From: an uncultured Spirochaetota bacterium
Lineage (GTDB): Bacteria; Spirochaetota; Spirochaetia; SZUA-6; Fen-1364
Direction: 5' to 3'
DNA: 64,000 nt
Assembly (NCBI GenBank): GCA_963734545.1
Contig: CAVTHO010000007.1
Coordinates: forward strand, 193,236-257,235
Shown here: positions 29,516-56,827 of the stretch, one piece after another
How the letters are laid out: each line of letters starts with the position of its first letter
Numbering within the stretch: the stretch's first letter is position 1
Notes under the pieces: model-generated
The model's input: the letters and a program-made list of their open reading frames with translations, nothing else
What the model was told of the DNA's origin: nothing
Databases searched by the model: none
Position numbers and translations under genes: made by a program

Positions 29516-29577
29516 GGGGCCAATGTACCCCTCGAGAGATTGACAGGTCAAGGGAACGCCGCTACGATGGGGCGCCA

Positions 29578-30816
29578 ATGTCCATTCACCCCCGCAGAGT
29601 CCTTGTCATATTCCTTGCCGCGGCGGGAATGTCCGTCCTGCTGCTCTCCGGCTGTCAGAAAAAAGGCATCGAGGAGCTCGTCAGCAGCGAGCTTTTCTCG
29701 CTCACATTCGGCAAGATGGAAGACCAGCTCGATCTCTTCCAGTTCGAAGCGGCGAAAGTCGTGCGCAAGAACACCGTCTGCATGCGGGATGGCTGGTTCT
29801 ACGTCGCGAATGGCAATGCGGGCAAGATCATGGTTTTCTCCTCGTACGGGGACTTGATCTTCCTCCTGTACAATCCGCAGACAAATCCGGCCCCCACCGT
29901 GCTGGGTCCCGTGGACCAGGGCTCCGGCAACGAGGTGAGCACCCGCGGCTCGGTTGCATATCCCTTCGTCGATATCGGTGAGATCGCGGTCGCCAGTGAC
30001 AAGACGCTGTATGTCGAGGACGCGGTTGCCGAGGCCAAGGAAGTAAAAGACGCGGACAGGGGAGTGGTCCTCAGCCGCGTTATTCAGCGCTTCGACCGCA
30101 AAGGAAAGCCGCTGGGGTACATCGGCCAGGAAGGAATCGGCGGCACGCCCTTTCCCTACGTGTCCGCGCTGCACGTGGCTGCCGGAGACCAGCTCGTGGT
30201 CGTCTGCAGGCTCCCCCAGACATGGGAGGTCTTCTGGTATTCGCGCGACGGGGTCCTTCTGCACCAGGTGGAGCTCGACAACAAGAACCTGCCCGTGCAG
30301 CCTGCCAAAGGGGTTACGCCGGTGCTGGTGAACATCCTGCCGGACCTGCAAAACCCGGTTTTGTACCTGGTCATCTATTCTTACAGGGTTTCCGCCGATC
30401 CGGGCGCCGTGGAAACGCCGGCGCAGGACGGAGTGGTCGGGCGCGCTTACAAGCTCGATCTGCGCACCGGGCAGTATGATTCCTCCTTTGTCGAGTTTCC
30501 GCAGAATCTTCCCCGGAGGGAAAGGTCAGGGCTCAAGACAACCGAGATCCCGTCCCCGCCCAGCGAGCTCGTCGGGGTGAGCTCCAGCGGCTACTTCTAT
30601 CTGCTCGCCTACACCGACACCAACCTCTACACGCTCAGCATCCTGGATCCTGCCGGGAAGGTCAGGGCGCAGCGTCGCATGGTGATCGAGGACTCCGAGC
30701 TCATCTACCGTGACACGCATCTCTCCTCCACCGGCATCGTCTACGGGCTCCTGGCTGATCGGACCAGGGCGCACATCTCATGGTGGCGCTCGGACATGCT
30801 GCTGAACAGGGAGTAG
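29578..30816 (+). CDS. hypothetical lipoprotein
   Basis: 412 aa. Lipobox LLLSGC after a hydrophobic N-terminus. No recognised domain. Confidence 0.6.
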
Positions 30817-35669: not shown

Positions 35670-35771
35670 TCGTGGCTCCTTGCTGTCTGAGGATTGGCTA
35701 CTTTAGTCCGCCGCCATGCTTTTGTCAACAAACCTTCGGCACACCGCGCGGAGCGCGGTATCCGTAGGGCA

Positions 35772-35844
35772 GCAGGCGCGCAACTCCGCTGAAAGCGGCA
35801 GGCGCGCAACTCCGCCAGGAGCGGAAGGGCAGCCCAGGAGCGCG
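35772..35844 (+). repeat. intergenic direct repeats plus CAGGA hairpins
   Basis: GCAGGCGCGCAACTCCGC x2 (35772, 35798), followed by CTCCGCCAGGAGCGGAAG and CCCAGGAGCGCG. Confidence 0.7.
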
Positions 35845-35883
35845 TCCCTAGGTTGATGACGTGCCATTGCGGTCCAAAGGCAT

Positions 35884-37935
35884 CTATCGCGTGTCTCCGA
35901 AACCGCCGACCTTCTCGGCAAAGTGCGAGAACTCCATCGTAAAGGTGGCGCGGCCCTGCGTCGCGCTCCGCAGAGCCGTGGAATAGCCGAACATTGACAC
36001 GAGGGGCGCCTGCGCCTTCACATGGTCCGCGCCCGGCTTGCTCTCCACGTGCAGGATGAGCCCCTGGCGCGCGTTCAGGTTGCCGATCACCTCGCCGATG
36101 AAATCGGAAGGGCTGAGCACATCCACCGCCATGATCGGCTCCAGGAGAATGGGGCTCGCCTTCCGGCAGGCCGCGTCGAACGCCATGGCACCCGCTGCCT
36201 CGAAGGCGATCGGCGTCGAGGTGGCCTGGTGGTACTCTGCCTCGATCAACTCCACCCCGATGTCCAGCGCCGGGTAGCCGTAGACGACGCCGGATCCGAA
36301 CGCCGCGCTCACGCCGCGCTCGACCGCCGACACGAGCTCCTCCGGCAGCGCGCTTTCCGGGAGCGAGGAGCTGAACGCGTTGCCCTCTCCCCGGGGCAGG
36401 GGTTTCACGCGGATCGTGATGGTGGCGCTGTGTTCCTTGCCGGCGATCATCCTGTGGTACTTCTCCGTGTGGATGACCTCCGCGCTGATGGTCTCCCGAT
36501 AGGAGACCTGGGGCTTGCCCACCCGCGCCTCGACCTTGAAGTCGCGGAAGATGCGGGTCACCAGGACGTCCAGGTGCAATTCGCCCATTCCCGAGATGAT
36601 CAGCTCGCCCGTTTCCTCGTTTTCCTTGACCGAGAATGTCGGGTCCTCTTCCGCGAGAATCTCCAGCACTTCCGAGAGCTTCTTTCTCTCGGAAAGAGTC
36701 CGGGGCTCGATGGCGACCGAGATGACCGGCTGGGGGAAATGCATCTTCTCGAGCAGGATGGGGAAAGCCTCGACGCCGAGCGTGTCACCTGTCCGGGAGG
36801 ATTTCAGGCCCACCATCACCGCGATGTCCCCAGCCTCCACCTGGTCGATCTGCTGGGAGTGGTTGGAATGCATGCGCAGGAGCTTGTGGACGCGCTCCCG
36901 CTTCTTCTTGCTGATGTTGTAGGTGGTCTGGCCTTCCTTGATCCTGCCGGAATACATGCGCACGTAGCAGAGGTTTCCCATCTCCCGGTTGACCTGCAGC
37001 TTGAAGACGAGACCGAGACCGAACGCTTCCGGCTTGCAGGGCACTTCGACCGCGTCCTCTTTCTTGACGTGATGCCCGATTGCCGGCGGGAGGTCGAGCG
37101 GGGAGGGGAGGAACTCGACCACCGCGTCCAGCAGCGGCTGGACGCCGACGTTTCGCAGTGAGGCGCCGCAAAGAACGGGCGTGAACGCGCGCGACAGCGT
37201 TCCCTGCCGGATCACTTTCCGCAGCAGCGGGACCGGTATTTCAGCTCCCTTGAGGTACAGCTCGGTGATCTCGTCCGACAGGTGCGTCAGCTGGTCGAGG
37301 AGCTTCTCCCGCCATTTTCGGGCCTCGGCCTGGCGCGAGGCATCGAGGGGGCTGAAACCGATCGTGACGCCCTGGTCTTCCTGGCTCCAGCGGACCTCGC
37401 GCATTTCGACGAGGTCGATCACCCCCTCAAAATCGGATTCCGCGCCCATGGGCAGTTGAAGGGGGATGGGGAGGGTGGCCAGCTTCGCCGCCATTTCCTC
37501 CAGGACGCCGAAGAAGTTCGCGCCGATCCGGTCCAGCTTGTTGATGTACGCGATACGCGGCACATGGTAGCGGTCGGCCTGGTGCCACACAGTCTCGGAC
37601 TGTGGCTCCACTCCTCCCACGGCGCAGAATATGGCCACGGCGCCGTCCAGAACCCTGAGCGATCTTTCAACCTCGGCGGTGAAATCCACGTGCCCCGGCG
37701 TGTCGATGATGTTTACCTGATGGTCCCGCCAGTAGCAGGTGGTAGCGGCCGCGGTGATGGTGATGCCTCTCTCCTGCTCCTGGTCCATCCAGTCCATCGT
37801 GGCTTCACCGTCATCCACCTCTCCCATGCGATGGGTCTTTCCCGTGAAGAAGAGAATTCGCTCCGTCGTGGTGGTTTTCCCCGCGTCAATGTGCGCGATA
37901 ATGCCAATGTTGCGTATATTGTGGAGGTCTGCCAT
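35884..37935 (-). CDS. fusA: translation elongation factor G
   Basis: 683 aa. Canonical G motifs AHIDAGKTT, DTPGHVDF and NKLDR. Confidence 0.92.
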   Translation of the reverse strand: MADLHNIRNIGIIAHIDAGKTTTTERILFFTGKTHRMGEVDDGEATMDWMDQEQERGITITAAATTCYWRDHQVNIIDTPGHVDFTAEVERSLRVLDGAVAIFCAVGGVEPQSETVWHQADRYHVPRIAYINKLDRIGANFFGVLEEMAAKLATLPIPLQLPMGAESDFEGVIDLVEMREVRWSQEDQGVTIGFSPLDASRQAEARKWREKLLDQLTHLSDEITELYLKGAEIPVPLLRKVIRQGTLSRAFTPVLCGASLRNVGVQPLLDAVVEFLPSPLDLPPAIGHHVKKEDAVEVPCKPEAFGLGLVFKLQVNREMGNLCYVRMYSGRIKEGQTTYNISKKKRERVHKLLRMHSNHSQQIDQVEAGDIAVMVGLKSSRTGDTLGVEAFPILLEKMHFPQPVISVAIEPRTLSERKKLSEVLEILAEEDPTFSVKENEETGELIISGMGELHLDVLVTRIFRDFKVEARVGKPQVSYRETISAEVIHTEKYHRMIAGKEHSATITIRVKPLPRGEGNAFSSSLPESALPEELVSAVERGVSAAFGSGVVYGYPALDIGVELIEAEYHQATSTPIAFEAAGAMAFDAACRKASPILLEPIMAVDVLSPSDFIGEVIGNLNARQGLILHVESKPGADHVKAQAPLVSMFGYSTALRSATQGRATFTMEFSHFAEKVGGFGDTR

Positions 37936-45268: not shown

Positions 45269-46223
45269 CAAACGCCTCATTGTCTGTCTTGACGTGAAGG
45301 ACGGCCGCACCACCAAGGGGGTGCAATTCAAAGGAAATATCGACGTCGGCGACCCTGTGGAGATGGCGCGGAAATACTATGAGGACGGTGTCGACGAGCT
45401 GGTTTTCTACGACATCACCGCGTCGGCCGAAAGAAGGAAGATCCGGATCGACACGGTCCGCAGGGTGGCGGAGCAGGTCTTCATTCCCTTTTCCGTGGGC
45501 GGCGGCATTTCCTCCGTTGCGGAAATGAGGGAGGTGCTTCTGGCGGGCGCGGAGAAGGTGAGCGTGAACTCCGCGGCAGTGCGCAACCCCGACATCATCA
45601 CCGAGGGCGCATCGCTGTACGGGACCCAGTGCATCGTCCTGGGAATGGACGTGGCCAGGGATGACCGCATGCCTTCAGGCTACGTGGTGGTGATAGACGG
45701 CGGCAGGACCCGGACCGGCCTGGATGCTCTCCAGTGGGCCCGTCAGGCGGAGAAGCTGGGCGCCGGCGAGATCGTGCTCAACTCCATAGATGCGGACGGC
45801 ACGCGGGACGGCTACGAGCTGACCGTGACCGGGCTCGTTTCCCGAGGGGTCGGCATACCTGTCGTGGCGTCCGGTGGCGCGGGAGCGCCGGCGCACGTGC
45901 TCTCCGTGCTGCGGGACGCGGCCGCCGACGCGGCATTGGTCGCATCGATCGTGCATTCCGGCGCCTGGAGCATCCCCCGCATCAAGGATTTTCTGGAAGA
46001 AAACGGCATTCCAGTCCGGAAACAAAGTAATGCAGAATACCGTGCCCGCCCCTGTGCGCTCATGCTGCAGCCCGGCCTGTTGCCACAACACGGCATTGAA
46101 GCTATATTTGAGAAAATAGATGCGTCTATTGCTTTTCTCGGGAGTCAGGAGTTAAAGGCATGCCCACATACGAGTATGTGTGCACCAAGTGCGGTCATAG
46201 ATTCGAGGCCCTGCAGAGCATGA
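45261..46223 (+). CDS. hisF: imidazole glycerol phosphate synthase cyclase subunit HisF (suspicious ~68-aa 3' extension)
   Basis: [23 protein letters not shown].., [15 protein letters not shown]. The conserved part ends near 46020. The open frame then runs on across a promoter-like AT-rich stretch into the fmdB gene. Confidence 0.85.
46080..46108 (+). promoter_or_regulatory. sigma-70-like promoter (TTGCCA-17 nt-TATATT)
   Basis: Lies in the only AT-rich stretch upstream of the ATG at 46160. Confidence 0.45.
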
Positions 46224-46498
46224 CGGAGAAGCCGCTCTCCCGCTGCCCCGTGTGCAAGAGCGCGGTCCGCCGGATCATCAATGGCGGGATCGGCGTCATC
46301 TTCAAGGGAAGCGGATTCTACTCCACTGACAACAAGAGAAGCTCCGCCCTGACCGGCGGAAACGGCAGCTCCAAGGACAGGGACAAATCCTCGGAGAAGT
46401 CGCAGGAAAGCTCTCCTGAGAAAGCATCGACGGAAAGAACCGCTTCCGGGCAGTCCTCTTCTGACAAGAACTCCAAGGAAAAGACCCCGGCTTCCTGA
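46160..46498 (+). CDS. FmdB-family zinc-ribbon protein
   Basis: [16 protein letters not shown]...CPVC signature followed by an S/K-rich tail. Confidence 0.85.
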
Positions 46499-46503
46499 GC
46501 CCC

Positions 46504-47668
46504 TTAAAACTGTACTTTTTCGGTCTTCTCCAGGGCCTCGCGAATGAGGGATTCCACATCCAGGTGCGCGAAGGAGAGCTTCATCTTGCGCGCGTTGGGA
46601 TGAATCAGCGGGTGCGCGGGTGAGAACAGCACGCAGCAGTCGGCATAGGGGAGATTGGAAGTCTCGAACGTCTCGATCCTCCTTGCCACGGCGATTATCT
46701 CTTCCTTGTTCATGCCCACGAGGGGCCGGAATACGGGCAGGTCGGTGAACGAGCCCGTGAAGTGCATGCTCTCCACGGTCTGGCTCGCGACCTGGCCGAG
46801 GCTTTCTCCCGTTATCAGGCACATTGCCCCCGAGTCTTCGGCCAGCAGGGTCGCAAATCGCGTCATGCACGCGCGCAGCAGCAGCGTCACCTCCTCGTCC
46901 AGGGCCTTTTCCTTGATGCGCGCGAGCACCGGCGTGAACGGCACCACGTGGAGCACGATGCCCGGCGCCCAGGCCGACAGTATCCGGGCAAGGGTCTCGA
47001 CCTTTTCCCGCGCTTTCTCCGAGGTGAACGGAGCAGAGTGGAAGTAGACGGCCTCGATTGCCATTCCACGCTTTGCCATCATCCAGCCGGCCACCGGTGA
47101 ATCGATGCCTCCCGACAGGAGGAGCAGGCCCCTGCCCGGAGCTGCCGCTCGGCAGGCCGTAGGGACCGTTGATCGAAGGTCCATAGAGATAGGCGTGTTC
47201 GCGGATCTCGACATTCATGACCCAGTCGGGGGCGTGCACGTCCACCACCAGCCCGGGAAACCGCTCCAGCAGCAGCTCGCCGATCCGGCAGGAAATCTCG
47301 TAGGAGCTGAGGGGGAACCCCTTGTCCGCACGCCGGGTTTCCACCTTGAATCTCTTCCCCATGCCCGCGGCAATGAATCCCTCCGCGAGTCCGGCCGCGG
47401 CGGACTCGATCGCCGAGATATCCCCGTTGATCTGGAGCGCCTTGCAGAAGGAAACAACGCCGAACGTGCGCGTGAGCGCCGCCGCGATGGCATCCTCGTG
47501 CTCGGCCGGGAATCGAACAAAGACCCGGTGGAACGTCTCGTAGACGGAGAACTGCAGTCCGGGCAGCTTCGCCCGTATCGAGTCCTTGAGGCTCCTGACG
47601 AACGCGCCGCGATTGCGCTTCTTCAGTGCGATTTCCCCGTATTTCACCAGGAACAGGTCCTCCGTCAT
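46504..47668 (-). CDS. thiI: tRNA 4-thiouridine synthase ThiI (one frame break)
   Basis: THUMP N-terminus and PP-loop SGGIDSPVA. The frames join at plus-strand TGCCCGG (47133-47139). Removing one base gives ..GSSGRGLLLLSGGIDS.. No rhodanese domain. Confidence 0.9.
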
Positions 47669-48883
47669 GCCCCGCGCCCCCGGGCAATGGAAAGCAGAGG
47701 AGGGATATCCTGCCGCAGCACGGCGAGCAGACCGTCGATTTGAACCGCCGTTGTGGAAGGGCCGAAGGACACCCGGATTGCCGAGAGCGCGGTTTCGTGA
47801 GACAGCCCCATACTCTCCGGTACGCGGGTGCGGTCCTTCTTTTTCGATGAGCAGGCGGACCCTGTCGAGATGCAGTAGCCGCGGCTGTCCGCCATCCGCA
47901 CGACCACTTCCGCGGGGAGGGGAGGGAACCCTGCTGAAACGATATACGGTGAGTAGGCCGCCGCGTCATCTTCCTCCCGCGCCGAGGGGAATATCCAGGC
48001 GCCACGGATCTCCCGCAGCCCATGCACGAGGCGGCGCGCGTTCTCACCCGCGGCTGCGCGGTCCTGCTCCAGCCGGAGAAGCCTCTTTTCCGCAGCGACC
48101 GTCATTGCGCAGATGCCGGGCAGGTTCTCCGTGCCCGGGTCTTCGTCCGCGCTCCTGACCGCCGCCCACGGAAAGGAAACCCGGAGCGGCGCCTTCCCTC
48201 AGGTAGAGCGCCCCTGCGCCCCGGAGGCCGCCGATCTTGTGCGCACTGAAAGAGGCCGCGTCCACGTCCAATTCGCGCAGGGAGAATGGTATCTTGCCCA
48301 GCGCCTGCACCGCATCCGTGTGGAAGAGGATCTTCCGGCCGCGCCGCGCAGAGAACTCCCTGACCGCCCGGGCGATCTCCCTCAGGTCCTGCACGGCCCC
48401 GGTCTCGTTGTTGACCATCATGACGGAGACCATGACCGTGTCCTCGTCCAGCGCATCGGCGAGCGCCTGGGGGTCCACGGTGCCGTTGGCGCGAGGCGCG
48501 ACAAATGCGCATGAAATGCCGTGTCCCTGGAGGCTGTGAAGCTGCTCGTATACGGACGAGTGCTCGATGGCAGTGCTGACGACCCGGGTCTTTTGCCTCT
48601 GGACCCCGCCAAGCCTGTGACGGTCGAGCAGGGAGAGGAGGAGTGCGCCGTTCGACTCCGTCCCTCCGGAGGTGAAGACGATCTCCCGCGCCTCGACTCC
48701 GAGCGCGCCTGCAAAGCGAGCACGCATCTGCTCCAGCTTTTCCCCGGCCTCTCTCCCCGGCGCGTGGGGGGATGAAGGATTGGCGAACAGATGGAGCGAA
48801 ACTTCCCTTGCCTCGTCGATTGCGTCAGGTTCCGGTGGGGCTGAAGCGGCCCAGTCCAGGTAGGTCAATTCCTGTCCGCCCAT
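47665..48883 (-). CDS. cysteine desulfurase (NifS/IscS-like, class V aminotransferase; one frame break)
   Basis: PLP-binding lysine in SAHKIGG and active-site loop STGSACSS. The frames join at plus-strand TGCCCGG (48132-48138). ATGA overlap with thiI. Confidence 0.88.
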
Positions 48884-48885
48884 CC

Positions 48886-48914
48886 TTGATACAATCGACT
48901 CCTCTCGGTAGAAT
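48886..48914 (+). promoter_or_regulatory. sigma-70-like promoter (TTGATA-17 nt-TAGAAT) for the ArsR gene
   Basis: The -35 element lies 3 nt from the divergent nifS-like start codon (48881-48883). Confidence 0.5.
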
Positions 48915-48936
48915 AGACTGGAAAATACAGAAGACC

Positions 48937-49233
48937 ATGGAAAAAAACAAGGTTGTGGACAGGAAGAGCGCCCGAGGAAGCATCGCGCAGTTTGCGCGCA
49001 TACTCAAGGTATGCGGCCATCCCATGCGGCTGAAGCTGCTGCGCGCAATCGAGGCCAGCGAGCCATGCGTGTCGGATCTCTGGCACTGCGTGGAGGAATC
49101 TCAGCCGGTCGTATCGCAGCACCTGGCGGTGCTCAAACGGGAGGGCATCGTGAGCTCCCGCGTGGAGGGGAACCGGAGGATCTATTCCGTCACCGATCCG
49201 CTGGTCAAGGACCTCATCAGCAGGCTGCCCTAG
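48937..49233 (+). CDS. ArsR/SmtB-family transcriptional regulator
   Basis: 98 aa. HPMRLKLLRAIEASEPCVSDL followed by the recognition helix QPVVSQHLAVLKREGIV. Confidence 0.88.
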   Translation: MEKNKVVDRKSARGSIAQFARILKVCGHPMRLKLLRAIEASEPCVSDLWHCVEESQPVVSQHLAVLKREGIVSSRVEGNRRIYSVTDPLVKDLISRLP

Positions 49234-49244
49234 AGCGCGCACCC

Positions 49245-49309
49245 GGGCGCCGCGGTACCCCGCGGATTTATGGCGCCGCGGTACCCCGCGGATGTATGGC
49301 ACCGCGGCC
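49245..49309 (+). repeat. 2.5 x 26-bp tandem repeat of the CCGCGG hairpin family
   Basis: (g/t)ggcgccgcggtaccccgcggat(t/g)ta units starting 12 nt after the arsR stop. Confidence 0.85.
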
Positions 49310-49371
49310 TCTTTTGATGGCGTGCGGGCACGGCTTGTGCATCAGGCGCGCGCAACGGTACTCTTTCCCGC

Positions 49372-49791
49372 ATGCATGAATGGGCTCTGGCTGACGCAGT
49401 GATAGAGGCAACCGCGTCCGCACTCGCGGGGAGGGATCCGGCGTGCCTGCGCGCCGTCAATGTCCTGATCGGCGAGCTGCAGGCGATCGACCGCGAGATC
49501 TTCGATTTCGCCCTCACGACAATGCTGGAGGAAAAACCGTTTCGCGGCGCGCGCTATAAGCTGGAGACGGAAGCAGCGGTCTTTCTTTGCGCGGCCTGCG
49601 ACAGGCAATGGGGTCTCCCGGAGACGAACAGCCTGACCGCGGAAACGCGCGAAGCAATTCATTTTCTGCCTGAGGCGGCCCACGCGTTCGTCCGATGCCC
49701 TTCCTGCGGCAGTCCGGATTTTCGGGTACACAAGGGAAGGGGGGTGAGCATCGCCAGCCTGGAGATGTCAGTGGAGGGCGCGTGCGGGTGA
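49372..49791 (+). CDS. hypA: hydrogenase nickel-insertion protein HypA (long, archaeal-style form)
   Basis: N-terminal MHEW metal-binding motif. Two CxxC pairs (CAAC, CPSC) separated by 32 residues. 139 aa. Confidence 0.85.
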   Translation: MHEWALADAVIEATASALAGRDPACLRAVNVLIGELQAIDREIFDFALTTMLEEKPFRGARYKLETEAAVFLCAACDRQWGLPETNSLTAETREAIHFLPEAAHAFVRCPSCGSPDFRVHKGRGVSIASLEMSVEGACG

Positions 49792-50522
49792 CGGATCCCC
49801 GCGGCGCTGTTGTCGGAAAGCGGCTCTCCGGCATCGGCCGCATCGCGGGCTTTTGCTCGGCAAAAGGCGGCGTCGGAAAAACAATGTGCACGGCGGTGGC
49901 AGGCATCGCGCTTGCCGGCCAGGGGAAAAAGGTCGGACTCCTCGACCTGGACCTGCAGGGCGCGTCCGCGCACGTCTTCCTCGGTGTGCAACCGGGATTG
50001 CCGAAGGAGGACAAGGGGATCCTCCCGCTTTCTGTCCTGAAGAACCTGTGCCTGATGAGTGTGACGTCGTTTACCGGAGAGCATCCGCTTGCGCTCCGGG
50101 GTGCCGAGGTGTCAGATGCGCTTCGTGAGCTCCTGGCCGTCACTCAGTGGGGCACGCTGGACTATCTCTTCATCGATATGCCGCCGGGCATCGGGGACGA
50201 GGTGCTCGATCTCGCCCGGTTGATACCCCGAATGGAGGCGATCGTCGTCTCCACGCCGTCACCGGTTTCCGTGGCAGTGGTGGAGAGGCTGATGGCGGTT
50301 CTTGCGGAAATGCGCATTTCCGTGCCGGGCGTGATCGCCAACATGGTGCGGGACGGCGCGGAAACGGTGAACGATCTGGCGCGGCGCTGCGGCGTGCCTT
50401 TCGCCGGTGAGGTGCCGTTTGAGCCCGGCATCGAGAGCGCTGTCGGCGCTCCCGGCGCGCTCGGCCGCACGGGAGCGGCGGCCGCCCTCCTCCGCGCGCT
50501 GGCAGCAATGCGATTTGCCTAG
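49788..50522 (+). CDS. Mrp/MinD-family P-loop ATPase (candidate non-canonical HypB)
   Basis: GTGA overlap with hypA (alternative GTG at 49782). Deviant Walker A CSAKGGVGKT. LDYLFIDMPPGIGDE. Confidence 0.8.
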   Translation: MTDPRGAVVGKRLSGIGRIAGFCSAKGGVGKTMCTAVAGIALAGQGKKVGLLDLDLQGASAHVFLGVQPGLPKEDKGILPLSVLKNLCLMSVTSFTGEHPLALRGAEVSDALRELLAVTQWGTLDYLFIDMPPGIGDEVLDLARLIPRMEAIVVSTPSPVSVAVVERLMAVLAEMRISVPGVIANMVRDGAETVNDLARRCGVPFAGEVPFEPGIESAVGAPGALGRTGAAAALLRALAAMRFA

Positions 50523-50666: not shown

Positions 50667-50969
50667 ATGAGTGTCTTCGAAATCACCATGCTCGTGTGCT
50701 TCGGCGCCGCATGGCCCGTTTCCATCTACAAGTCCCTGAAATCCCGCCAGGTGGCCGGAAAGAGCCTGCCCTTCCTGGTCATCATTCTGATCGGTTATGG
50801 CGCAGGCGTTCTGCACAAACTGCTGTATCACTACGACGCGGTGATATTCCTGTACCTCCTCAACGCCCTCATGGTGGCATTCGACATCTTCCTCTACCTC
50901 CGCAACAGGCTCTACCATGTGCGTCGCAGTCTCCTCGAGGCCGGCGACAGATCGAAGGAGGGTCACTGA
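50667..50969 (+). CDS. small 3-TM membrane protein (PQ-loop/SemiSWEET-like topology, unverified)
   Basis: 100 aa with three hydrophobic helices. Immediately precedes the flavodoxin gene. Confidence 0.5.
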   Translation: MSVFEITMLVCFGAAWPVSIYKSLKSRQVAGKSLPFLVIILIGYGAGVLHKLLYHYDAVIFLYLLNALMVAFDIFLYLRNRLYHVRRSLLEAGDRSKEGH

Positions 50970-50970
50970 C

Positions 50971-51462
50971 ATGAAGGTGCTCATCGCATATCGATCGAAA
51001 TACGGTGCCACGGAGACCTGCGCCCATGCGCTTGCGGAACGGATCAAGGCGGAAACCGCGCTCGCAGACCTGCGAATCCGTCACACGCCGGATGTGCACG
51101 CATTCGACGTCGTGCTGATAGGCGGATCGATCTACGGGGGCAGGATCCAGCGGGAAGTGACCTCGTTCTGTGAGCGTCGCGGGGAGCTGCTGCTGCAAAG
51201 AAGGACCGGACTGTTTCTCTGCTGTCTCTCTCAAGGGGAGCACGCACGGGAGCAGCTTCAGGCCGCTTTCCCTGAATGGCTCTCCGCGCACGCGTTTGCG
51301 TGCAGTCTTTTCGGCGGGGACCTGCGCTATGACAGGCTCACCCTCCTGGACAGGCTGCTCGTGCGGGGTCTCCCCCGGCCTCCGCGCGGAGTTTCGCTCC
51401 TGGACACGGATGCCATCGCGGACATGGCCGATATCGTGAACTCATTCCTGCCGGGCGCGTAG
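50971..51462 (+). CDS. flavodoxin-domain protein, HemG-like
   Basis: MKVLIAYRSKYGATE.., VLIGGSIYGG and FGGDLRYDRLTLLDRLL resemble long-chain HemG-type flavodoxins. Confidence 0.7.
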   Translation: MKVLIAYRSKYGATETCAHALAERIKAETALADLRIRHTPDVHAFDVVLIGGSIYGGRIQREVTSFCERRGELLLQRRTGLFLCCLSQGEHAREQLQAAFPEWLSAHAFACSLFGGDLRYDRLTLLDRLLVRGLPRPPRGVSLLDTDAIADMADIVNSFLPGA

Positions 51463-51497: not shown

Positions 51498-52745
51498 CTA
51501 CTGCACGAGGGCGTCGGCCACCAGCTTGGACAGGAACTCCACCCGCATGCCGAGGCCGTAGTGCGCGTTGATGTCGGTGAGCTGGGTATGGCAATTCTCA
51601 CAGGCCGTGCAGAGAATCGCCGCGCCTGAGGCCTTCATCTGGTCGGCCTTGACCTTAGCCGACTTCATCCGGAAATCCTGTTCCCCCATGGCGACAAGCC
51701 CGCCGCCCCCTCCGCAGCACCAGTTCCTGTCGCGATTGGGCTGAAGCTCGACGAAATCATTCGTCAGTTTGCTGATGACGTACCGCGGCTCCTCGATCAC
51801 GCCTCCGTTGCGCGCGATCTGGCACGGGTCGTGGTAGGTGAGCCTGCCCGCGAGCTTCGTGCCGTCCAGCCGGATTCTTCCCTCTCTCAAATAACGCGCG
51901 ATGAGCTCCACGAAGGCCACGACCTTGAAGGGATGCGCGCCGGTCATGTACTTCATGACCCTGAACGCGGTCCCGCATTCGACTATCGCGACCTCTTTCA
52001 CCTTGAGCCGGACGGCCTCGTCATGTATCCGCCGGGCGATTATCTGCGTCTTCTTCGGGTCTCCGAGAAACGCGGCGAAGTTCACCGCTTCGAATACGCT
52101 CAGAGTCCATTTTTCTCCCGCGGCATTCATGATGGCGGCGGCGGGCACGATGGAATGGCTGCCCGCCAGGGCCACGTAGAGAACGTCGGCGCCTTCCGCC
52201 TCCACGCTCACCGCATTCTGACCGGGCGATCCCGCCCAGAGGGCGCGGATCTCCGGCTCGAGGTTGCGCACGGCCTTCTCGAATCCCGGGCGGCTTTCCT
52301 CGACGCCGTCGGCCTTGGCGATGGACATGTCGGCGAGCATGGTGAGGAGCTTGGGCTCCTTGTCCGCGCCGATGAGGAGGAGCTTGGCGATGGACATGAT
52401 CATCTGCGTGTCGATTCCGAAGGGACAGAAGGTCATGCAGCGCCGGCAGCCCGTGCACGACCAGGCGGCATCGGACACGAGGTCCAGGGAGATATCGTCC
52501 ATGGGAAGGACTTCGCCGAGCCAGGGAGCGAACTTTCCCTCCAGCTTGAAATAGCGCTTGAAGATCTTGCGGATCACCTCGGCGCGGCCCACCGCCGTGT
52601 ACCGGGTCTGGGGCATGGAAGCGTATGCATGGCAGGCTTCCACGCAGACTCCGCAACGGGCGCACGTGTCCAGGTAGAGGCGCATCGCGCCATTGAGCCT
52701 GGTTTTGAACAGGTCCTTGAGCTTGCTGCGGGTGGTCTGGTCCAT
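51498..52745 (-). CDS. DsrK/HdrD-like iron-sulfur oxidoreductase (CCG-domain protein)
   Basis: Two ferredoxin motifs (CARCGVCVEAC, CTGCRRCMTFCP) and a C-terminal CCG domain (HDPCQ..NWCCGGGGG..CTACENC). Confidence 0.8.
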   Translation of the reverse strand: MDQTTRSKLKDLFKTRLNGAMRLYLDTCARCGVCVEACHAYASMPQTRYTAVGRAEVIRKIFKRYFKLEGKFAPWLGEVLPMDDISLDLVSDAAWSCTGCRRCMTFCPFGIDTQMIMSIAKLLLIGADKEPKLLTMLADMSIAKADGVEESRPGFEKAVRNLEPEIRALWAGSPGQNAVSVEAEGADVLYVALAGSHSIVPAAAIMNAAGEKWTLSVFEAVNFAAFLGDPKKTQIIARRIHDEAVRLKVKEVAIVECGTAFRVMKYMTGAHPFKVVAFVELIARYLREGRIRLDGTKLAGRLTYHDPCQIARNGGVIEEPRYVISKLTNDFVELQPNRDRNWCCGGGGGLVAMGEQDFRMKSAKVKADQMKASGAAILCTACENCHTQLTDINAHYGLGMRVEFLSKLVADALVQ

Positions 52746-52749
52746 GCCG

Positions 52750-53589
52750 CTACCTCCTCCTCAGCAGGTTGAGGGGTACGCTGAAAAAAGTGTGAATGAT
52801 CTTGGTGAAAGGCAGGACCATGAAAAAAAGGTCCGCGAGGAGCACGTGGATGACCGCGAAGTGGTAGTGGGAACCAGGGAGGACCGCGCGGGGATCGGCA
52901 AAGGAGAAGCGGAGGAGCCCGTCGAAGTACTTCGAGAAATCCTGCTTGGTCATGACGAAGCCGTGCGCTGTCCACGAGTTCCCCCAGCTCATGAGGTCAC
53001 CGAAGAGGAACAGGAAGAGAAGAAGGAGAAGAAGCAGGTAGTCGGCAGGCACGGATATCTCCCTGACCGGGCTCCTGAATCGCCTCATGATGAAGTAGAG
53101 AACAGGCAGCGTCACGGCAGCTCCCACCGCGCCGGCGCCCAGCATGTGGCGTGACTCAGGCCCGACGATGTTGATCTGCGGGAGTATGTCCAGGTGACCG
53201 AGGATCAGAAGCAGGAAGGCGACGTGGTAGATCATGAGGAAAATCCAGAAGAGGGGTTTGTGCGCCCTCACCTGGGGCATGGCAAAAGTGTCCACCAGGC
53301 TGGCAAGGCCGGGCCGCTTCGCTGCCGGGTACAGGCGCAGGGAGAATGCCTGCCGGGGGGCGCGCAGGATCGTCACGATGCGCCAGGTCACCCCCACCAC
53401 GAGTACAAGCACGGAGAGGTACACCAGCGGCACCATGATGACGTAGTCGATCCAGTTCACCACGAGGGCGAGCCCGGTGGGGGCCGCCGAAGCGATCGAG
53501 GCCGACGTGGCGGCATCGATCGCTCCCGGGGAGCCGGCCGCCGCGGCGGAGGCGGCGGTCACAGCGTCCGAAACTGCCTGTGCTGCCAT
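52750..53589 (-). CDS. DsrM/HdrE/NarI-like membrane cytochrome b
   Basis: About 5 TM helices with conserved His pairs (IYHVAFLLLILGH; HYHFAVIHV..KIIH). 4-nt gap to the DsrK-like gene. Confidence 0.72.
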   Translation of the reverse strand: MAAQAVSDAVTAASAAAAGSPGAIDAATSASIASAAPTGLALVVNWIDYVIMVPLVYLSVLVLVVGVTWRIVTILRAPRQAFSLRLYPAAKRPGLASLVDTFAMPQVRAHKPLFWIFLMIYHVAFLLLILGHLDILPQINIVGPESRHMLGAGAVGAAVTLPVLYFIMRRFRSPVREISVPADYLLLLLLLFLFLFGDLMSWGNSWTAHGFVMTKQDFSKYFDGLLRFSFADPRAVLPGSHYHFAVIHVLLADLFFMVLPFTKIIHTFFSVPLNLLRRR

Positions 53590-53603
53590 CCAGGTCTTCT
53601 CTC

Positions 53604-53843
53604 CTATTTCTGGCGCTTCACGAAGATCTTGATGACCCCCGGCTCCTGCCGCGATTCAAGAATTGCCTGCCCGGTTGTCTTGGCCCAGGCGGGGAAGTCC
53701 GCCAGGGACCCGGGATCCGTGGTATGCACCTCGATTACGTCGCCCACAGCGACTGAACCGATCACCTGGCTGATCTTGACAATGGGCATGGGACATGCGA
53801 GCCCCTTGTAGTCCAGTGTCTTGGCAATCGTGTAGTCCGCCAT
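53604..53843 (-). CDS. tusA: TusA/SirA-family sulfur carrier protein
   Basis: 79 aa. LDYKGLACPMPIV contains the catalytic-Cys CPxP motif. Confidence 0.9.
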   Translation of the reverse strand: MADYTIAKTLDYKGLACPMPIVKISQVIGSVAVGDVIEVHTTDPGSLADFPAWAKTTGQAILESRQEPGVIKIFVKRQK

Positions 53844-53864
53844 ATGACTCTTCCTTTCCGTTTC

Positions 53865-54407
53865 CTAGATGAAGAACTGGATGGCCGAATCCTTCGCATG
53901 CCCGAGCATCGTCGCCACGCCGCAGACCTCCAGACCGGGGTAATCGACCATTTCTTCCTTCTTGAATCCCATCAGGTCCATGGACATCTCGCAGATGTAG
54001 ATCTTCACGGCGAGCTGGCCCGCCACCTCGAGGAGCTGGTCCATGCTCGCGACGTTCTTTTTCTGCATGAGGCCTTTCAGCATGGCGGTGCCCATGCCGG
54101 CCATGTGCATCTGGGAGAGCTTCAGCTTGTTGCGGCCCTTCGGGAGCATCATGCCGAACATCTTCGACATGACGTTCTTGCCGTTCACGTGCTTCGCGGG
54201 GTCGCGCAGCGCGGCCGTCCCCCAGAAGGTGAAGAAGAGCACGACCTTCATGCCCATCGCAGCGGCCCCGGTGGCGATGATCATGGCAGCAAGCTGTTTG
54301 TCCAGGTCTCCCGAGAACACGATCATGGTTACCTTGTTCTCGGCGCCCGGCATGTCCCCTACCTTGGCCTTGAGCTCGGCGATTTCCTTTTCGACGTTCA
54401 GAGTCAT
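53865..54407 (-). CDS. DsrE/DsrF/DsrH-like family protein (DsrE_2 type)
   Basis: 180 aa. VTMIVFSGDLDK..VVLFFTFWG..KIYICEMSMDLMG, with a conserved Cys. Confidence 0.78.
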   Translation of the reverse strand: MTLNVEKEIAELKAKVGDMPGAENKVTMIVFSGDLDKQLAAMIIATGAAAMGMKVVLFFTFWGTAALRDPAKHVNGKNVMSKMFGMMLPKGRNKLKLSQMHMAGMGTAMLKGLMQKKNVASMDQLLEVAGQLAVKIYICEMSMDLMGFKKEEMVDYPGLEVCGVATMLGHAKDSAIQFFI

Positions 54408-54423
54408 ATCCTCGCTCCTTCCC

Positions 54424-54466
54424 TGACGCTCCTGGCGTCACTTCTCTCCGGACGCTCCCGGCGTCA
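54424..54466 (-). promoter_or_regulatory. duplicated hairpin module between arsR and the dsrE-like gene
   Basis: Plus-strand TGACGC-TCCTG-GCGTCA (54424-54440) and GACGC-TCCCG-GCGTC (54451-54465), forming a ~27-nt direct duplication. On the mRNA the loops read CAGGA and CGGGA. Confidence 0.5.
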
Positions 54467-54814
54467 TTTCTGCTTGACGGCGCCTGTGGCGCCTCTGTTC
54501 CGTATTGTCGCTGCCGGCACTTCCCTGTGACACCCTTCGAGGCACTTGACGAGGTCCCGCAGGCGCGGCTCAACCAGGGCATATCGGGCGAACCCTGCCT
54601 GCCGGGTGGCGGCAACAAGATGGCTCATCCGCAGGATGCGGAGCTGCTGCGACACGATAGCCTGCTTGAGATCCAGTCTCTCGGCAAGCCCGATGACGCT
54701 TTCCTCCCCTTCACACAGAATGGCCACTATGCCGAGCCGAGCGGGATGCGCCAGCGCCTTGAGCACATCTGCCAGGTGCGCAGCCCGCGGCCGTTCATCC
54801 GCCAGGCTTCCCAT
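54464..54814 (-). CDS. ArsR/SmtB-family transcriptional regulator (Cys34, Cys91, Cys95)
   Basis: HPARLGIVAILCEGEESVIGLAERL, recognition helix QAIVSQQLRILR, and C-terminal KCLEGCH. Confidence 0.88.
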   Translation of the reverse strand: MGSLADERPRAAHLADVLKALAHPARLGIVAILCEGEESVIGLAERLDLKQAIVSQQLRILRMSHLVAATRQAGFARYALVEPRLRDLVKCLEGCHREVPAATIRNRGATGAVKQK

Positions 54815-54845
54815 TTGCTCTCCTTCACTGTCTATTTGATTGTAG

Positions 54846-54880
54846 CGATATGACTATATCACGATATCCAAAATATGCAA
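54846..54880 (-). promoter_or_regulatory. sigma-70-like promoter (TTGCAT-16 nt-TATAGT) overlapped by a GATAT/ATATC operator-like triple repeat
   Basis: On the minus strand the -35 is at 54875-54880 and the -10 at 54853-54858. GATAT (54847), ATATC (54856) and GATAT (54863) cover the -10 and the spacer. Confidence 0.55.
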
Positions 54881-54930: not shown

Positions 54931-55440
54931 TCAGAACGCGAAAAGTATGCCGGCGTTCAGGTGGAAGACCCCCATGTTCCTGCTTCCCTCGAAGAGCACG
55001 TTGTATTTCGCCTGAACAAAGGCATCCAGGTTGCTGATGAGCCTGAATGCCGCTCCGCCCAGCAGGCCGACATGCGGCGCCAGGACGTCCGCAACCGTCG
55101 TGAGGCCGGGGCTCAACCCGGCAAACACATCGAAATCCCCCAGCGGCACGATGAATTTGAAAGCGAGGTCGACATCGGTGGCGTTTTGAGTGTCGAACTT
55201 GTAGAGCTCGGAAGAAGGAGTGATGTGGAACGTGGAAATGAGCGGGATGTTCACATAGAATCCCCAGTTGAAGCTCGGCTGCCCCTCGGTGTTGGGGATG
55301 TTCGTCGTGCTGCCCTGCGGAAACGCGGCTCCGAAAGAGAACCCGAGCCCTACTGATGTAGCGGATGGGTCAGCGGAAAGGGGCACGGCGGAGGAGAGGG
55401 CAAGGACGATGAGCACGAAAAGCGGGAGCATGCGCGGCAT
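54931..55440 (-). CDS. small outer-membrane beta-barrel protein
   Basis: Signal peptide MPRMLPLFVLIVLALSSAVPLSA, alternating beta-strand pattern and C-terminal ..AGILFAF. AAGGAGG RBS. 19-nt gap after the bgl gene. Confidence 0.75.
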   Translation of the reverse strand: MPRMLPLFVLIVLALSSAVPLSADPSATSVGLGFSFGAAFPQGSTTNIPNTEGQPSFNWGFYVNIPLISTFHITPSSELYKFDTQNATDVDLAFKFIVPLGDFDVFAGLSPGLTTVADVLAPHVGLLGGAAFRLISNLDAFVQAKYNVLFEGSRNMGVFHLNAGILFAF

Positions 55441-55459
55441 GGCGGTGTTCCTCCTTTCC

Positions 55460-56796
55460 CTACTGTAGCCCATTTGCCCGGATCAAGTCACGGTACCAGA
55501 ACGCGCTTTTTTTCCATTGACGGGCCTGCGTGGCGAAGTCAATCCGCAGCAGGCCGAAACGCATCGAGAGGCCCCAGTTCCACTCGAAGTTGTCCATCAG
55601 GCTCCAGTGGAAGTAGCCCCGGCAGTCCACCCCTTCGGCAATCGCGCGTCCGACCATGGCCACGTGATCCGAAAGGTAGGCAATACGCTCCTCGTCTTGC
55701 AGGGGGTCCTTCCCGGAAACCTCGACAAGGGGAAATCCGTTCTCGGTTATCACGCAGGGAGGGTTGCCGTACTTTTCCTTCAGCCGAAGCAGTATTGCAT
55801 GCAGGCCCTGCGGGTAGATCTCCCACATGGCGCTGCGGAGGGAGTCCGGCTTGACGTACTCACTCGCATGAAGATAGGGCATGAAGCGCGCCCATCGATA
55901 GTGGTTCCGCGTATAGTAGTTGATTCCGATGTAGGTGCCTGGTTTTTTCATTTCCCGCAGGTCGCTGTCCAGCGTGCGGGGAAGGAACCGGTGCAGCCTC
56001 CTGAGCATCCTCTCCGGGTAGATGCCGCGAAGCAGGGGATCCAGCACGGACCCGTTGGCCGCGTCGTCCATGAAGGCCGCTGCTTCCACGTCGCGGGCGC
56101 GGTTCTCATCCGCAGGGGAGACCCACACGGCGTGGTGCGCCAGCCCGATCATCCCCGGCCTGCCGGTTGCCGACCAGGCCTCGACCAGGCGTGCGTGGCC
56201 AAGAAGCAGATGGTGGGAGGCATGCATCATCCCCCGCAGCGCCAGCTTGCGCCCGGGGGAAACTCGCCGGTGCCGAATCCGAGGAAGGCATAGATGGTCG
56301 GCTCGTTGACCGTGATCCAATTCCTCACCCTGTCACCGAGCGCTCCGAACAACGCGGAGCCGAGCTCCACGAGGTGGTCGATTGCCGACCGATCGGTGAA
56401 GCCTCCCCTGCGCGACAGCCACAGCGGCTCCTCGAGGTGGAAAACGGTGATCCAGGGATCGATGCCGGCGGCAAGCACGCGGTCGACGAGCCTGCTGTAG
56501 AAATCGATCCCTGCCTGGTTCAGCCGTCCGGGCTCCGGGAAAATCCGGCCCCACCCGACGGAAAAACGATAGGCGTGGACGCCGAGATCACGCAAATGCC
56601 GGATGTCCTCCTCGTACCTGTGATAGTGGTCACAGGCGAAGTCGGCATTTGTTCCATCTTTGATCGTGCCTCGCCGATGGGAGAACTCGTGCCAATTCGT
56701 GGGGCCTGCCCCGTCCGCCAGGGGAGAGCCCTCGATCTGGTAGGCGGCGCTGGCCGCGCCCCATAGAAATCCCTTCGGAAATTCTGTTGTTTCCAT
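55460..56796 (-). CDS. GH1 beta-glucosidase (one frame break)
   Basis: FLWGAASAAYQIEG, TVNEP and ITENG catalytic motifs. The frames join at plus-strand GCCCGGGGGA (56251-56260), where one base is missing. Confidence 0.9.
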
Positions 56797-56827
56797 GGTG
56801 GGCTGATTATATGCTACGCTGACGCTC

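Follow-up and report, generated by a model that had tools for sequence, protein, structure and literature searches.

A conserved TusA-DsrE2-cytochrome b-DsrK-like gene cassette in an uncultured spirochaete and its relatives: a candidate quinol-linked reductase of carrier-bound sulfur

Organization of the cassette and its control region

We analyzed a 64-kb stretch of DNA (contig CAVTHO010000007.1; hereafter the window) from an uncultured Spirochaetota bacterium, in which a cassette of five genes occupies positions 51498-54880 on the minus strand. A preliminary description, made from the sequence alone, had read these genes as ArsR, DsrE_2, TusA, a NarI-like protein and a DsrK-like protein, and had suggested a quinone-linked sulfur relay. 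Profile searches bore out this composition. The five minus-strand open reading frames (ORFs) were found intact at the coordinates given there, and the gaps of 56, 21, 14 and 4 nt between them were reproduced. Four of the genes, for two small sulfur carriers and two putative redox subunits, recur together in at least four phyla and are considered here as a candidate membrane-bound reductase system. The features of the cassette are as follows.

54815-54880, minus strand: putative promoter/operator 5' of arsR, read directly from the sequence
54464-54814, minus strand: ArsR/SmtB-family repressor gene (116 aa; HTH_5, NCBIfam metalloregulator model)
54408-54463, minus strand: arsR-dsrE2 spacer, with two tandem hairpins and then the DsrE2 ribosome-binding site
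53865-54407, minus strand: DsrE_2-family sulfur carrier gene (180 aa, soluble; PF13686)
53604-53843, minus strand: TusA-family sulfur carrier gene (79 aa; PF01206)
52750-53589, minus strand: NarI/DsrM/TmcC-type membrane cytochrome b gene (279 aa; PF02665)
51498-52745, minus strand: DsrK/HdrD-type cytoplasmic iron-sulfur (FeS) subunit gene (415 aa; Fer4_8 plus CCG, PF02754)

All five ATG start codons are preceded by a purine-rich, GGAG-type Shine-Dalgarno-like stretch, which takes the form of a GAAGGAG ribosome-binding site in the case of arsR. The spacing of the five genes suggests that they are co-transcribed, and the scan of the window found no intrinsic terminator 3' of the last cassette gene. 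No signal peptide was evident in the soluble proteins of the cassette, and their chemistry is therefore placed in the cytoplasm.

The operon had been described as lying behind one strong promoter, but a consensus scan called no site 5' of arsR. By eye, a plausible promoter that is not strong could be recognized, with TTGCAT (54880-54875) and TATAGT (54858-54853) separated by a 16-nt spacer and matching the consensus at three and five of six positions, respectively. Three ATATNG repeats are also present 5' of arsR (54867-54862, 54859-54854 and 54851-54846), and a near-palindrome, ATATCGTGATAT (54867-54856), overlaps the -10 element of the by-eye promoter. The arsR upstream element is almost identical in two of the related loci that were collected from other genomes (L003 and L004; see below), and ATAT-rich palindromes occur at the equivalent position in four others (L010, L013, L014 and L017). 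We infer that the region 54815-54880 may serve as promoter and operator. The 56-nt spacer between arsR and dsrE2 contains two tandem small hairpins, TGACGCCGGGAGCGTC and TGACGCCAGGAGCGTC, of the GACGCC-N3-5-GGCGTC type, and its predicted RNA fold has an energy of -18.5 kcal/mol. Among the related loci, only the closest relative (L003, 8286-8338) has this hairpin pair as well, with a 6-bp stem; the pair might act as an attenuator, mark a site of processing or provide another operator.

Properties and family placement of the encoded proteins

The DsrK-like protein gave end-to-end matches to three NCBIfam models: DsrK (6e-71, 239.4 bits), TmcB (2e-68, 231 bits) and HmcF (3.5e-60, 204 bits). DsrK outscored the other two curated equivalog models for most cassette members. 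However, the window protein missed the DsrK equivalog cut-off (NF045796, 400 bits), as did the cassette orthologues tested (235-269 bits), and the cassette likewise differs from the TmcBC and HmcEF modules, since all cassette FeS subunits tested stay far under the cut-offs for TmcB and HmcF (735 and 750 bits). The assignment to the DsrK/HdrD side of the family in the preliminary description has held, as the protein groups with DsrK, TmcB and HmcF and away from GlpC and GlcF; an identity as GlpC, GlcF or LldE was rejected (∼35 bits versus 239 for DsrK). P0134, which clears the DsrK cut-off with 451 bits, shares only 36% identity with the window protein. Among 1.84 billion cluster representatives (50% identity), one close representative was found at 61% identity, followed by one at 45%, and the remainder were at 40% or below. 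Judged from these comparisons, the DsrK-like family is a distinct paralogue, inside the DsrK/TmcB/HmcF clade but forming a separate group.

The two 4Fe-4S motifs and the CCG domain reported for this protein were both found. Cysteines 28/31/34/38 and 97/100/103/107 form two CxxCxxCxxxC motifs, and the CCG motif is complete (C308-X34-C343C344G-X37-C382xxC385), so that the protein has the structural signature of DsrK (two [4Fe-4S] motifs plus a C-terminal CXnCCGXmCXXC). In 74 DsrK-like sequences all 14 cysteines were invariant, namely the eight of the clusters, the five of the CCG motif and Cys257. The subunit is presumed to be the catalytic disulfide/trisulfide reductase. An AlphaFold2 model, which was built from a 12-sequence alignment and had a mean predicted local distance difference test (pLDDT) score of 64.8, was used for a coarse fold search. 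The best Foldseek matches in the PDB were Mycobacterium smegmatis EtfD (9OJN; 1.2e-9, 18% identity), HdrB chains and LutA, and these matches fit a predicted CCG fold of the HdrD/HdrB type. When solved structures were searched by sequence, EtfD 9OJN was the sole match at E<=0.001 (6.6e-13, in the CCG region), and no DsrK entry was found. In two more distant relatives with 38% identity, P0125 (661 aa) and P0139 (670 aa), the DsrK-like part is preceded by an N-terminal stretch of ∼250 additional residues, which, if EtfD 9OJN is a guide, could form a fused membrane domain.

The membrane protein matched Nitrate_red_gam (PF02665) at 1.8e-11, with 38 bits for TmcC and 35 bits for NarI, and five transmembrane helices were predicted. 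Two histidine pairs, H122/H132 and H248/H266, show the spacing of NarI (10 and 18), and all four residues were invariant among 76 sequences; H248/H266 aligns with the helix-V haem-ligand histidines of Escherichia coli NarI (1Q16_C). The sequence thus has the structural features of DsrM, a NarI-type cytochrome b with five transmembrane helices and four histidines, and haem binding is predicted. Its similarity to DsrM at the level of family models is low: the window protein had no DsrM match at E<=0.01 in NCBIfam, and cassette membrane subunits reached 31-42 bits on the DsrM equivalog (NF038037, cut-off 300), with 42 bits for the L073 orthologue, and 38-48 bits on the TmcC model. A clade-specific, Ala/Ser-rich N-terminal extension of ∼40 aa is found on the cassette cytochrome. 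The subunit is presumed to be a quinol-oxidising di-haem anchor.

Both carriers contain the motifs named in the preliminary description. The TusA protein (PF01206, 3.1e-20; 72.3 bits, gathering cut-off 28.6) has a CPMP motif whose Cys17 is the single invariant cysteine in 72 of 72 sequences. It falls below the E. coli-type TusA equivalog (35.8 versus 78) and has weak matches to the YeeD and YedF models, far under their cut-offs; Ta1170, TM0983 and Spirochaeta thermophila YeeD are among its relatives of solved structure. The DsrE_2 protein (PF13686, 1.6e-48; 165 bits, cut-off 25) reached 76.8 bits on the DsrE2 equivalog NF047629, versus a cut-off of 210. Cys139 in its IYICEMS motif is the single invariant cysteine of DsrE2 (71 of 71 sequences), and Cys162 occurs in 55% of them. 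The nearest structures were the uncharacterised 3PNX (2e-30) and, nearest among the classified ones, the DsrE2B-type 2QS7 (3.7e-16). Unlike DsrE2A, the cassette DsrE2 has no transmembrane helices; the role of DsrE2A in A. vinosum has been stated as unclear (PMC11094781). The YTD cluster (yedE-tusA-dsrE-chp) was considered as an identity for the locus and rejected, as YedE and chp genes are lacking and the DsrE of YTD belongs to the DsrEFH type II complex.

The ArsR protein matched the NCBIfam metalloregulator model (1.7e-19) and the BigR model at 63.7 bits (cut-off 155), and its best solved relatives were SqrR (6O8K, 5e-13) and BigR (3PQJ, 2e-11). Repressors of the SqrR/BigR type have two sensing cysteines, located in alpha2 and in the C-terminal helix, between which a tetrasulfide bridge forms. 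Members of this subfamily sense sulfane sulfur via two conserved cysteines, and ArsR-type sulfane-sulfur sensors control clusters that contain TusA and DsrE (PMC12423496). Like the SqrR, BigR, SoxR and sHdrR repressors, the cassette ArsR is a small winged-helix protein with cysteines in helix alpha2 (Cys34, in 9 of 10 orthologues) and in the C-terminal helix (C91-x3-C95, 10 of 10), encoded upstream of sulfur-carrier genes. Neither the alpha3 CVC nor the alpha5 His/Asp metal site is present in it. The protein is a candidate thiol-based sensor of reactive sulfur species, and its membership of the dithiol-sensor group is plausible but unproven.

Distribution and gene neighbourhood

A search of 5.8 billion proteins with the FeS subunit yielded 3,653 homologues at E<=1e-20 among 8,000 candidates scored. 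The best 120 of these were 67-91% identical, and the few with named sources came from Spirochaetia, Rectinema, Eisenbacteria and Saccharofermentanales. We also scanned one genome per GTDB species, in which at least 591 relatives were detected, and kept the best 79 loci. Synteny was examined by BLASTP of the ORFs of each locus against the five window proteins, and 66 loci had enough upstream DNA for this purpose.

In 64 of the 66 loci, the genes for DsrE2, TusA and the NarI-like protein formed a group immediately 5' of the DsrK-like gene and on its strand (identity of the FeS subunit within the family, 55-91%). Thus, the preliminary expectation that the five genes are conserved together holds for the four structural genes across phyla, whereas the ArsR gene is not part of the core: a regulator of the window type was present in only 12 of the 66 loci, from Spirochaetota, Rectinemataceae and two Desulfarculales-like loci. 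The two exceptions to the synteny were L047, with no detectable DsrE2, and the most divergent locus, L080 (55% identity), with the NarI-like gene only. The order of the TusA and cytochrome genes is swapped in L049, L054 and L079. In L066 (5128-11257) the whole four-gene cassette is duplicated in tandem, and in L079 (4964-10138) a second NarI-like/DsrK-like pair directly follows the first cassette.

About 55 of the best 79 loci belong to Thermodesulfobacteriota (Desulfobacterales, Desulfarculales, Syntrophobacteraceae and Solidesulfovibrio magneticus) and 10 to Spirochaetota genomes or metagenome-assembled genomes (MAGs) of Spirochaetaceae, Treponemataceae and Rectinemataceae, including Rectinema subterraneum; the others include several Eisenbacteria and Bacillota (Oscillospiraceae and Clostridiales). 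The cassette had been called unexpected in a spirochaete, which can no longer be maintained in view of these 10 loci. On the other hand, the remark that no characterised system has this composition still stands, as we found no description of a DsrE2-TusA-DsrM-like-DsrK-like cassette in the literature searched; an earlier mention elsewhere is possible. Every part comes from a known family, and the cassette is a recombination of known modules.

The regulator changes with the host. Eisenbacteria carry a different ArsR, and in 40 Thermodesulfobacteriota loci the ArsR is replaced by a MarR protein with a conserved Cys-Cys pair and a third cysteine. The presence of two unrelated cysteine-bearing repressors before the same cassette points to an inducible, thiol-based response rather than a constitutive respiratory complex. 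Regulators aside, the sole recurrent neighbour outside the core is a FadL/TodX-like outer-membrane protein gene, located just downstream in 27 loci. The FadL/TodX family, which imports hydrophobic molecules and might here bear on the uptake of S8, occurs after the cassette in Thermodesulfobacteriota loci; examples of such neighbours (MarR before or FadL-like after the cassette, within L025-L078) lie in L035 (7789-8268) and L073 (11550-12830). In some Desulfobacterales, the cassette lies beside genes for a rhodanese-metallo-beta-lactamase, ATP sulfurylase and an HdrA-/QmoB-like protein (FlpD plus pyridine-nucleotide-disulfide-oxidoreductase domains). In an Oscillospiraceae MAG (L028; 11481-13961, plus strand), the cassette is directly followed by a gene for an 826-aa protein in which Pyr_redox_2, rhodanese, TusA and DsrE_2 are fused, its DsrE_2 domain being 55% identical to the cassette DsrE2. 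It has the architecture of Pcar_0429 (see below), and is a candidate sulfur/persulfide reductase of that type.

The preliminary description had seen no DsrAB or DsrC near the operon. In agreement with this, neither was found in the annotated parts of the window, which yielded no sulfite reductase, a motif scan detected no window ORF with a DsrC-type C-terminus, and no dsrAB, dsrC or other dsr gene was present among the annotated recurrent neighbour clusters of the 79 loci. The conserved cassette contains no dsrJOP. In addition, no HdrA or LbpA homologue was found among the annotated conserved neighbours, no YeeE/YedE importer, Ttr or Phs among the annotated recurrent neighbours, and no etf gene in the annotated parts of the window or among the recurrent neighbours.

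These data bear on whether the cassette is simply an ordinary DsrMK that serves DsrAB and DsrC encoded elsewhere, with TusA and DsrE2 as accessory sulfur donors. DsrK is the top curated equivalog model for most cassette members, and Neukirchen et al. (2023) described a basal 'dsrMK-only' clade from Deltaproteobacteria and Clostridia, whose members additionally have DsrMKJOP and of which only 7 out of 74 lack DsrAB (PMC10504309). This clade may be the same family as the cassette, and no link of it with TusA or DsrE2 is mentioned in that work. Moreover, the dsrE genes of Desulfurella amilsii adjoin dsrMK-dsrC-dsrAB (PMC6378623). However, both subunits score well under the DsrK (239 versus 400) and DsrM (42 for the orthologue versus 300) cut-offs, the identity to a protein that passes the former is low, the synteny among the annotated neighbours is with TusA and DsrE2 and not with dsrC or dsrAB, and no window ORF ends like DsrC. 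The sulfate reducers that carry the cassette are generally known to have DsrMKJOP as well, and Spirochaetota and Oscillospiraceae are not known to have DsrAB. Canonical DsrMK was rejected on equivalog scores, identity (36%) and synteny, and we give very little credence to a service role for a distant DsrAB/DsrC.

The module could also be a generic quinone-linked one, similar to EtfD or TmcBC and with a partner other than the carriers, or a metal(loid) or selenium resistance system under an ArsR metal sensor. EtfD was the top structural match, and CCG proteins, among them TfrB, LdhH, GlpC and GlcF, act on many substrates; the regulator belongs to the ArsR family, and the vicinity of the cassette holds another ArsR gene, clustered with HypA and Mrp, as well as a flavodoxin-like gene. 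Yet TusA and DsrE2 are the sole invariant partners across phyla while regulators and neighbours change, no ETF, ars, czc or sel genes are linked, and the ArsR, closest to SqrR and BigR, is without the metal sites mentioned above. It should also be noted that EtfD/EMO (ETF:menaquinone oxidoreductase) fuses the NarI-like and HdrD-like parts and is encoded with EtfAB or depends on it, whereas the cassette subunits are separate. We therefore attach scarcely any probability to such a module.

Another possibility concerns the species bound to the carriers. They might hold a thiosulfonate or some other oxidised adduct of sulfur or selenium that originates from tetrathionate, thiosulfate or sulfite, and the complex would release it reductively as thiosulfate or as sulfite plus sulfide. 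Archaeal DsrE3A and TusA carry tetrathionate-derived thiosulfonate (PMC4175335), NCBIfam labels BigR as sulfite-sensing, and some Desulfobacterales have Sat and a Qmo-like gene close to the cassette; the weak YedF/YeeD matches of the TusA and a gene resembling the C-terminal half of YedF, 4.4 kb from the cassette, point the same way. On the other hand, the cassette DsrE is DsrE2B-like with a single conserved cysteine whereas DsrE3A has Cys-X7-Cys, YeeE/YedE, Ttr and Phs are not linked among the annotated neighbours, and the YeeD/YedF scores are far under the cut-offs. Such an adduct thus seems quite unlikely.

Several features elsewhere in the window were recorded. The YedF-like gene (59294-59632, plus strand) encodes a stand-alone 112-aa protein that matches the C-terminal half of YedF (positions 87-193; 96.8 bits, cut-off 110) and lacks the TusA-like N-terminal domain, and the translation of the ORF upstream of it reads as PAS-like. 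At 48772-50522 (plus strand), 1 kb from the cassette, the gene for a second ArsR-family regulator (153 aa; cysteines in CGHP and CVSDLWHC) precedes those for HypA and an Fe-S carrier ATPase of the Mrp/ApbC type; this cluster may be a separate metal-responsive or hydrogenase-maturation unit. A Flavodoxin_5 protein gene (50917-51462, plus strand) is convergent with the cassette at a distance of 35 bp, and its identification as the menaquinone-dependent protoporphyrinogen dehydrogenase HemG was rejected (47.8 bits versus a cut-off of 142). The small outer-membrane-protein-like gene upstream of the cassette (54931-55473) had no family match and is not conserved next to the cassette. A pair of EF-G paralogues (686 and 683 aa) lies side by side at 33609-37935 (minus strand), and a single ORF joining the FliO and FliP domains lies in the flagellar export cluster (3200-4606, plus strand). 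Finally, frameshifts seem to have split several housekeeping genes (minus strand: 55460-56973, 46145-48883 and 26743-29578): the Pfam match of a GH1 beta-glucosidase is divided between two ORFs that overlap (positions 3-183 and 180-452), NifS/IscS breaks off at position 233 of a 379-position model, the ThiI match covers positions 2-174 of 373 inside a 507-aa ORF, and SecA is without its N-terminal domain. This suggests assembly errors or pseudogenes, with the cassette genes being intact.

Proposed function and its significance

Taken together, we consider it an evenly balanced proposition that the cassette specifies a reductase of the DsrMK/HdrDE type which sits in the membrane and depends on quinol, and for which TusA and DsrE2 stand in for DsrC. 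Gene content, motifs, synteny and the families of the proteins are established here; substrate, direction and quinone coupling are assigned from homology in what follows, and the inducer is presumed. TusA-Cys17 or DsrE2-Cys139 would take up sulfane sulfur (persulfide, polysulfide or S0-derived) in the form of a persulfide. The other carrier would then attack this persulfide with its thiol, releasing H2S and leaving a TusA-S-S-DsrE2 heterodisulfide; alternatively, a TusA-S-S-S-DsrE2 trisulfide could form, which would correspond to the DsrC trisulfide but join two proteins. The bridge would be reduced in the cytoplasm by the [4Fe-4S] cluster bound to the CCG motif of the DsrK-like subunit, with electrons from quinol oxidised at the NarI-like di-haem b subunit passing via the two ferredoxin-type clusters. 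In this organism, the operon would be held off by the cysteine-bearing ArsR and switched on by reactive sulfur species. The role of the system might be the O2-free removal of cytoplasmic sulfane sulfur, possibly with S0 or polysulfide as an electron sink.

Several lines of evidence support this proposal. First, TusA and DsrE2 are the only invariant partners, with one thiol each, and are therefore proposed to play the role of the DsrC arm; because each carrier keeps exactly one invariant cysteine, two proteins would be needed for the two thiols of DsrC. Second, the invariant histidines, the cluster cysteines, the CCG motif, the clade placement and the EtfD/HdrB fold support the redox chain. Third, the fusion gene of L028 and the proposal made for Pcar_0429 of Pelobacter carbinolicus support a reductive role for a TusA and DsrE pair. 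Pcar_0429 has been proposed to be an S0 reductase with a persulfide relay, NADH/FAD serving to reduce a disulfide between TusA and DsrE (PMC3543383). That TusA/DsrE3 cascades deliver sulfur to the CCG-containing sHdr complex is experimentally established in sulfur oxidisers (PMC11094781). The regulators also speak for the proposal: the ArsR has conserved cysteines and its closest solved relatives are the persulfide sensors SqrR and BigR, and the MarR of the Thermodesulfobacteriota loci carries conserved cysteines too. Further points in favour are the distance from canonical DsrMK and, in some sulfate reducers, the neighbouring genes for rhodanese-metallo-beta-lactamase, ATP sulfurylase and an HdrA-/QmoB-like protein.

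Several observations weigh against a quinol-dependent reductase. Its regulator misses the sensing columns of SqrR and BigR, with Ala31 at the canonical alpha2 cysteine and Cys34 one turn later, and C91xxxC95 in the C-terminal helix instead. AlphaFold2 modelled the N-terminal ferredoxin domain of the DsrK-like protein poorly (pLDDT <50), and the top match to EtfD shows that a NarI plus CCG architecture can serve non-thiol substrates. Menaquinol is an unfavourable donor for persulfide or polysulfide reduction (S0/HS- at about -270 mV versus menaquinone at about -74 mV under standard conditions), which leaves the direction uncertain if the potential of the protein-bound bridge is not much higher. 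Finally, many of the hosts (Treponemataceae, Rectinemataceae and Oscillospiraceae) are regarded as fermenters.

The potential difference makes the reverse reaction worth considering, namely the oxidation of carrier thiols and persulfides (TusA-SH plus DsrE2-S-SH) to a trisulfide or disulfide, with electrons passed to quinone, in order to feed or store sulfane sulfur. This direction is downhill with menaquinone, as generally known, and DsrMKJOP is thought to run oxidatively in sulfur oxidisers; TusA and DsrE proteins are also best known from oxidisers. DsrMK-type complexes indeed run both ways in nature (PMC10504309; PMC13293266). However, the conserved core has no further-oxidising enzyme (DsrAB, sHdr/LbpA or persulfide dioxygenase, PDO), the strict-anaerobe or fermenter hosts would need another acceptor for the reduced quinone, and the fusion protein neighbouring the cassette in L028 is of the reductase type. 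We regard the oxidative direction as unlikely.

Compared with known systems, the proposed reductase shares with the DsrMK part of DsrMKJOP a NarI-type di-haem b protein with four histidines and a cytoplasmic protein with two [4Fe-4S] clusters and one catalytic CCG domain. It differs in the absence of dsrJOP, dsrC and dsrAB, and in having the single-cysteine TusA and DsrE2 in place of the two-cysteine arm of DsrC. Methanosarcina HdrDE also combines a cytochrome b with an HdrD-like CCG protein, and its substrate is a disulfide of two separate carriers (CoM-S-S-CoB), conceptually similar to TusA-S-S-DsrE2; however, the carriers of the cassette are proteins rather than coenzymes, and its CCG protein has a single complete CCG motif. 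With sHdr-LbpA it shares TusA and DsrE-family proteins encoded together with, and feeding, a CCG-cluster enzyme (PMC11094781), often under an ArsR-type sulfane-sulfur sensor (PMC12423496). Unlike the cassette, sHdr is soluble (HdrAB1B2C1C2), lipoate-binding-protein dependent and sulfur-oxidising, whereas the cassette is membrane-anchored, without HdrA and LbpA, and has a DsrE2B-like rather than a DsrE3 carrier. In the Pcar_0429-type fusions, a TusA and DsrE_2 pair is likewise attached to a reductase, and persulfide relay, sulfide release and disulfide reduction have been proposed (PMC3543383); these are soluble single polypeptides using NAD(P)H/FAD, in contrast to a haem b/Fe-S membrane complex that is presumably quinol-fed and potentially energy-coupled.

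A further step would be to regard the TusA-DsrE2 bridge as the terminal acceptor of an electrogenic, quinol-oxidising DsrMK-like complex, with TusA and DsrE2 acting as a two-protein DsrC surrogate; in this strong form we find the idea doubtful. In sulfate reduction, sulfur oxidation and methanogenesis, enzymes of the DsrMK and HdrDE types link thiol/disulfide conversions with the quinone pool at the membrane, and to our knowledge all characterised ones act on DsrC or CoM-S-S-CoB. The cassette is a discrete and very well conserved paralogue that, apart from the exceptions given above, always has its own TusA and DsrE2. If the proposal is true, it would amount to a minimal, molybdenum-independent sulfur or polysulfide respiration, or to an energy-conserving persulfide detoxification, which operates in presumed plain fermenters (Spirochaetota, Oscillospiraceae and Eisenbacteria) and forms a second sulfur-reducing branch in sulfate reducers. 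It would give DsrE2 its still-missing biochemical function. Even the basic reaction proposed above, if right, would assign a role to DsrE2-type proteins and explain how sulfane sulfur is disposed of in anaerobes that lack an O2-dependent persulfide dioxygenase. In that case, the cassette would also be a candidate for the genetically unexplained reduction of S0 and polysulfide in fermentative spirochaetes and clostridia, and 'DsrMK' matches in metagenomes would not, on their own, signal a Dsr pathway.

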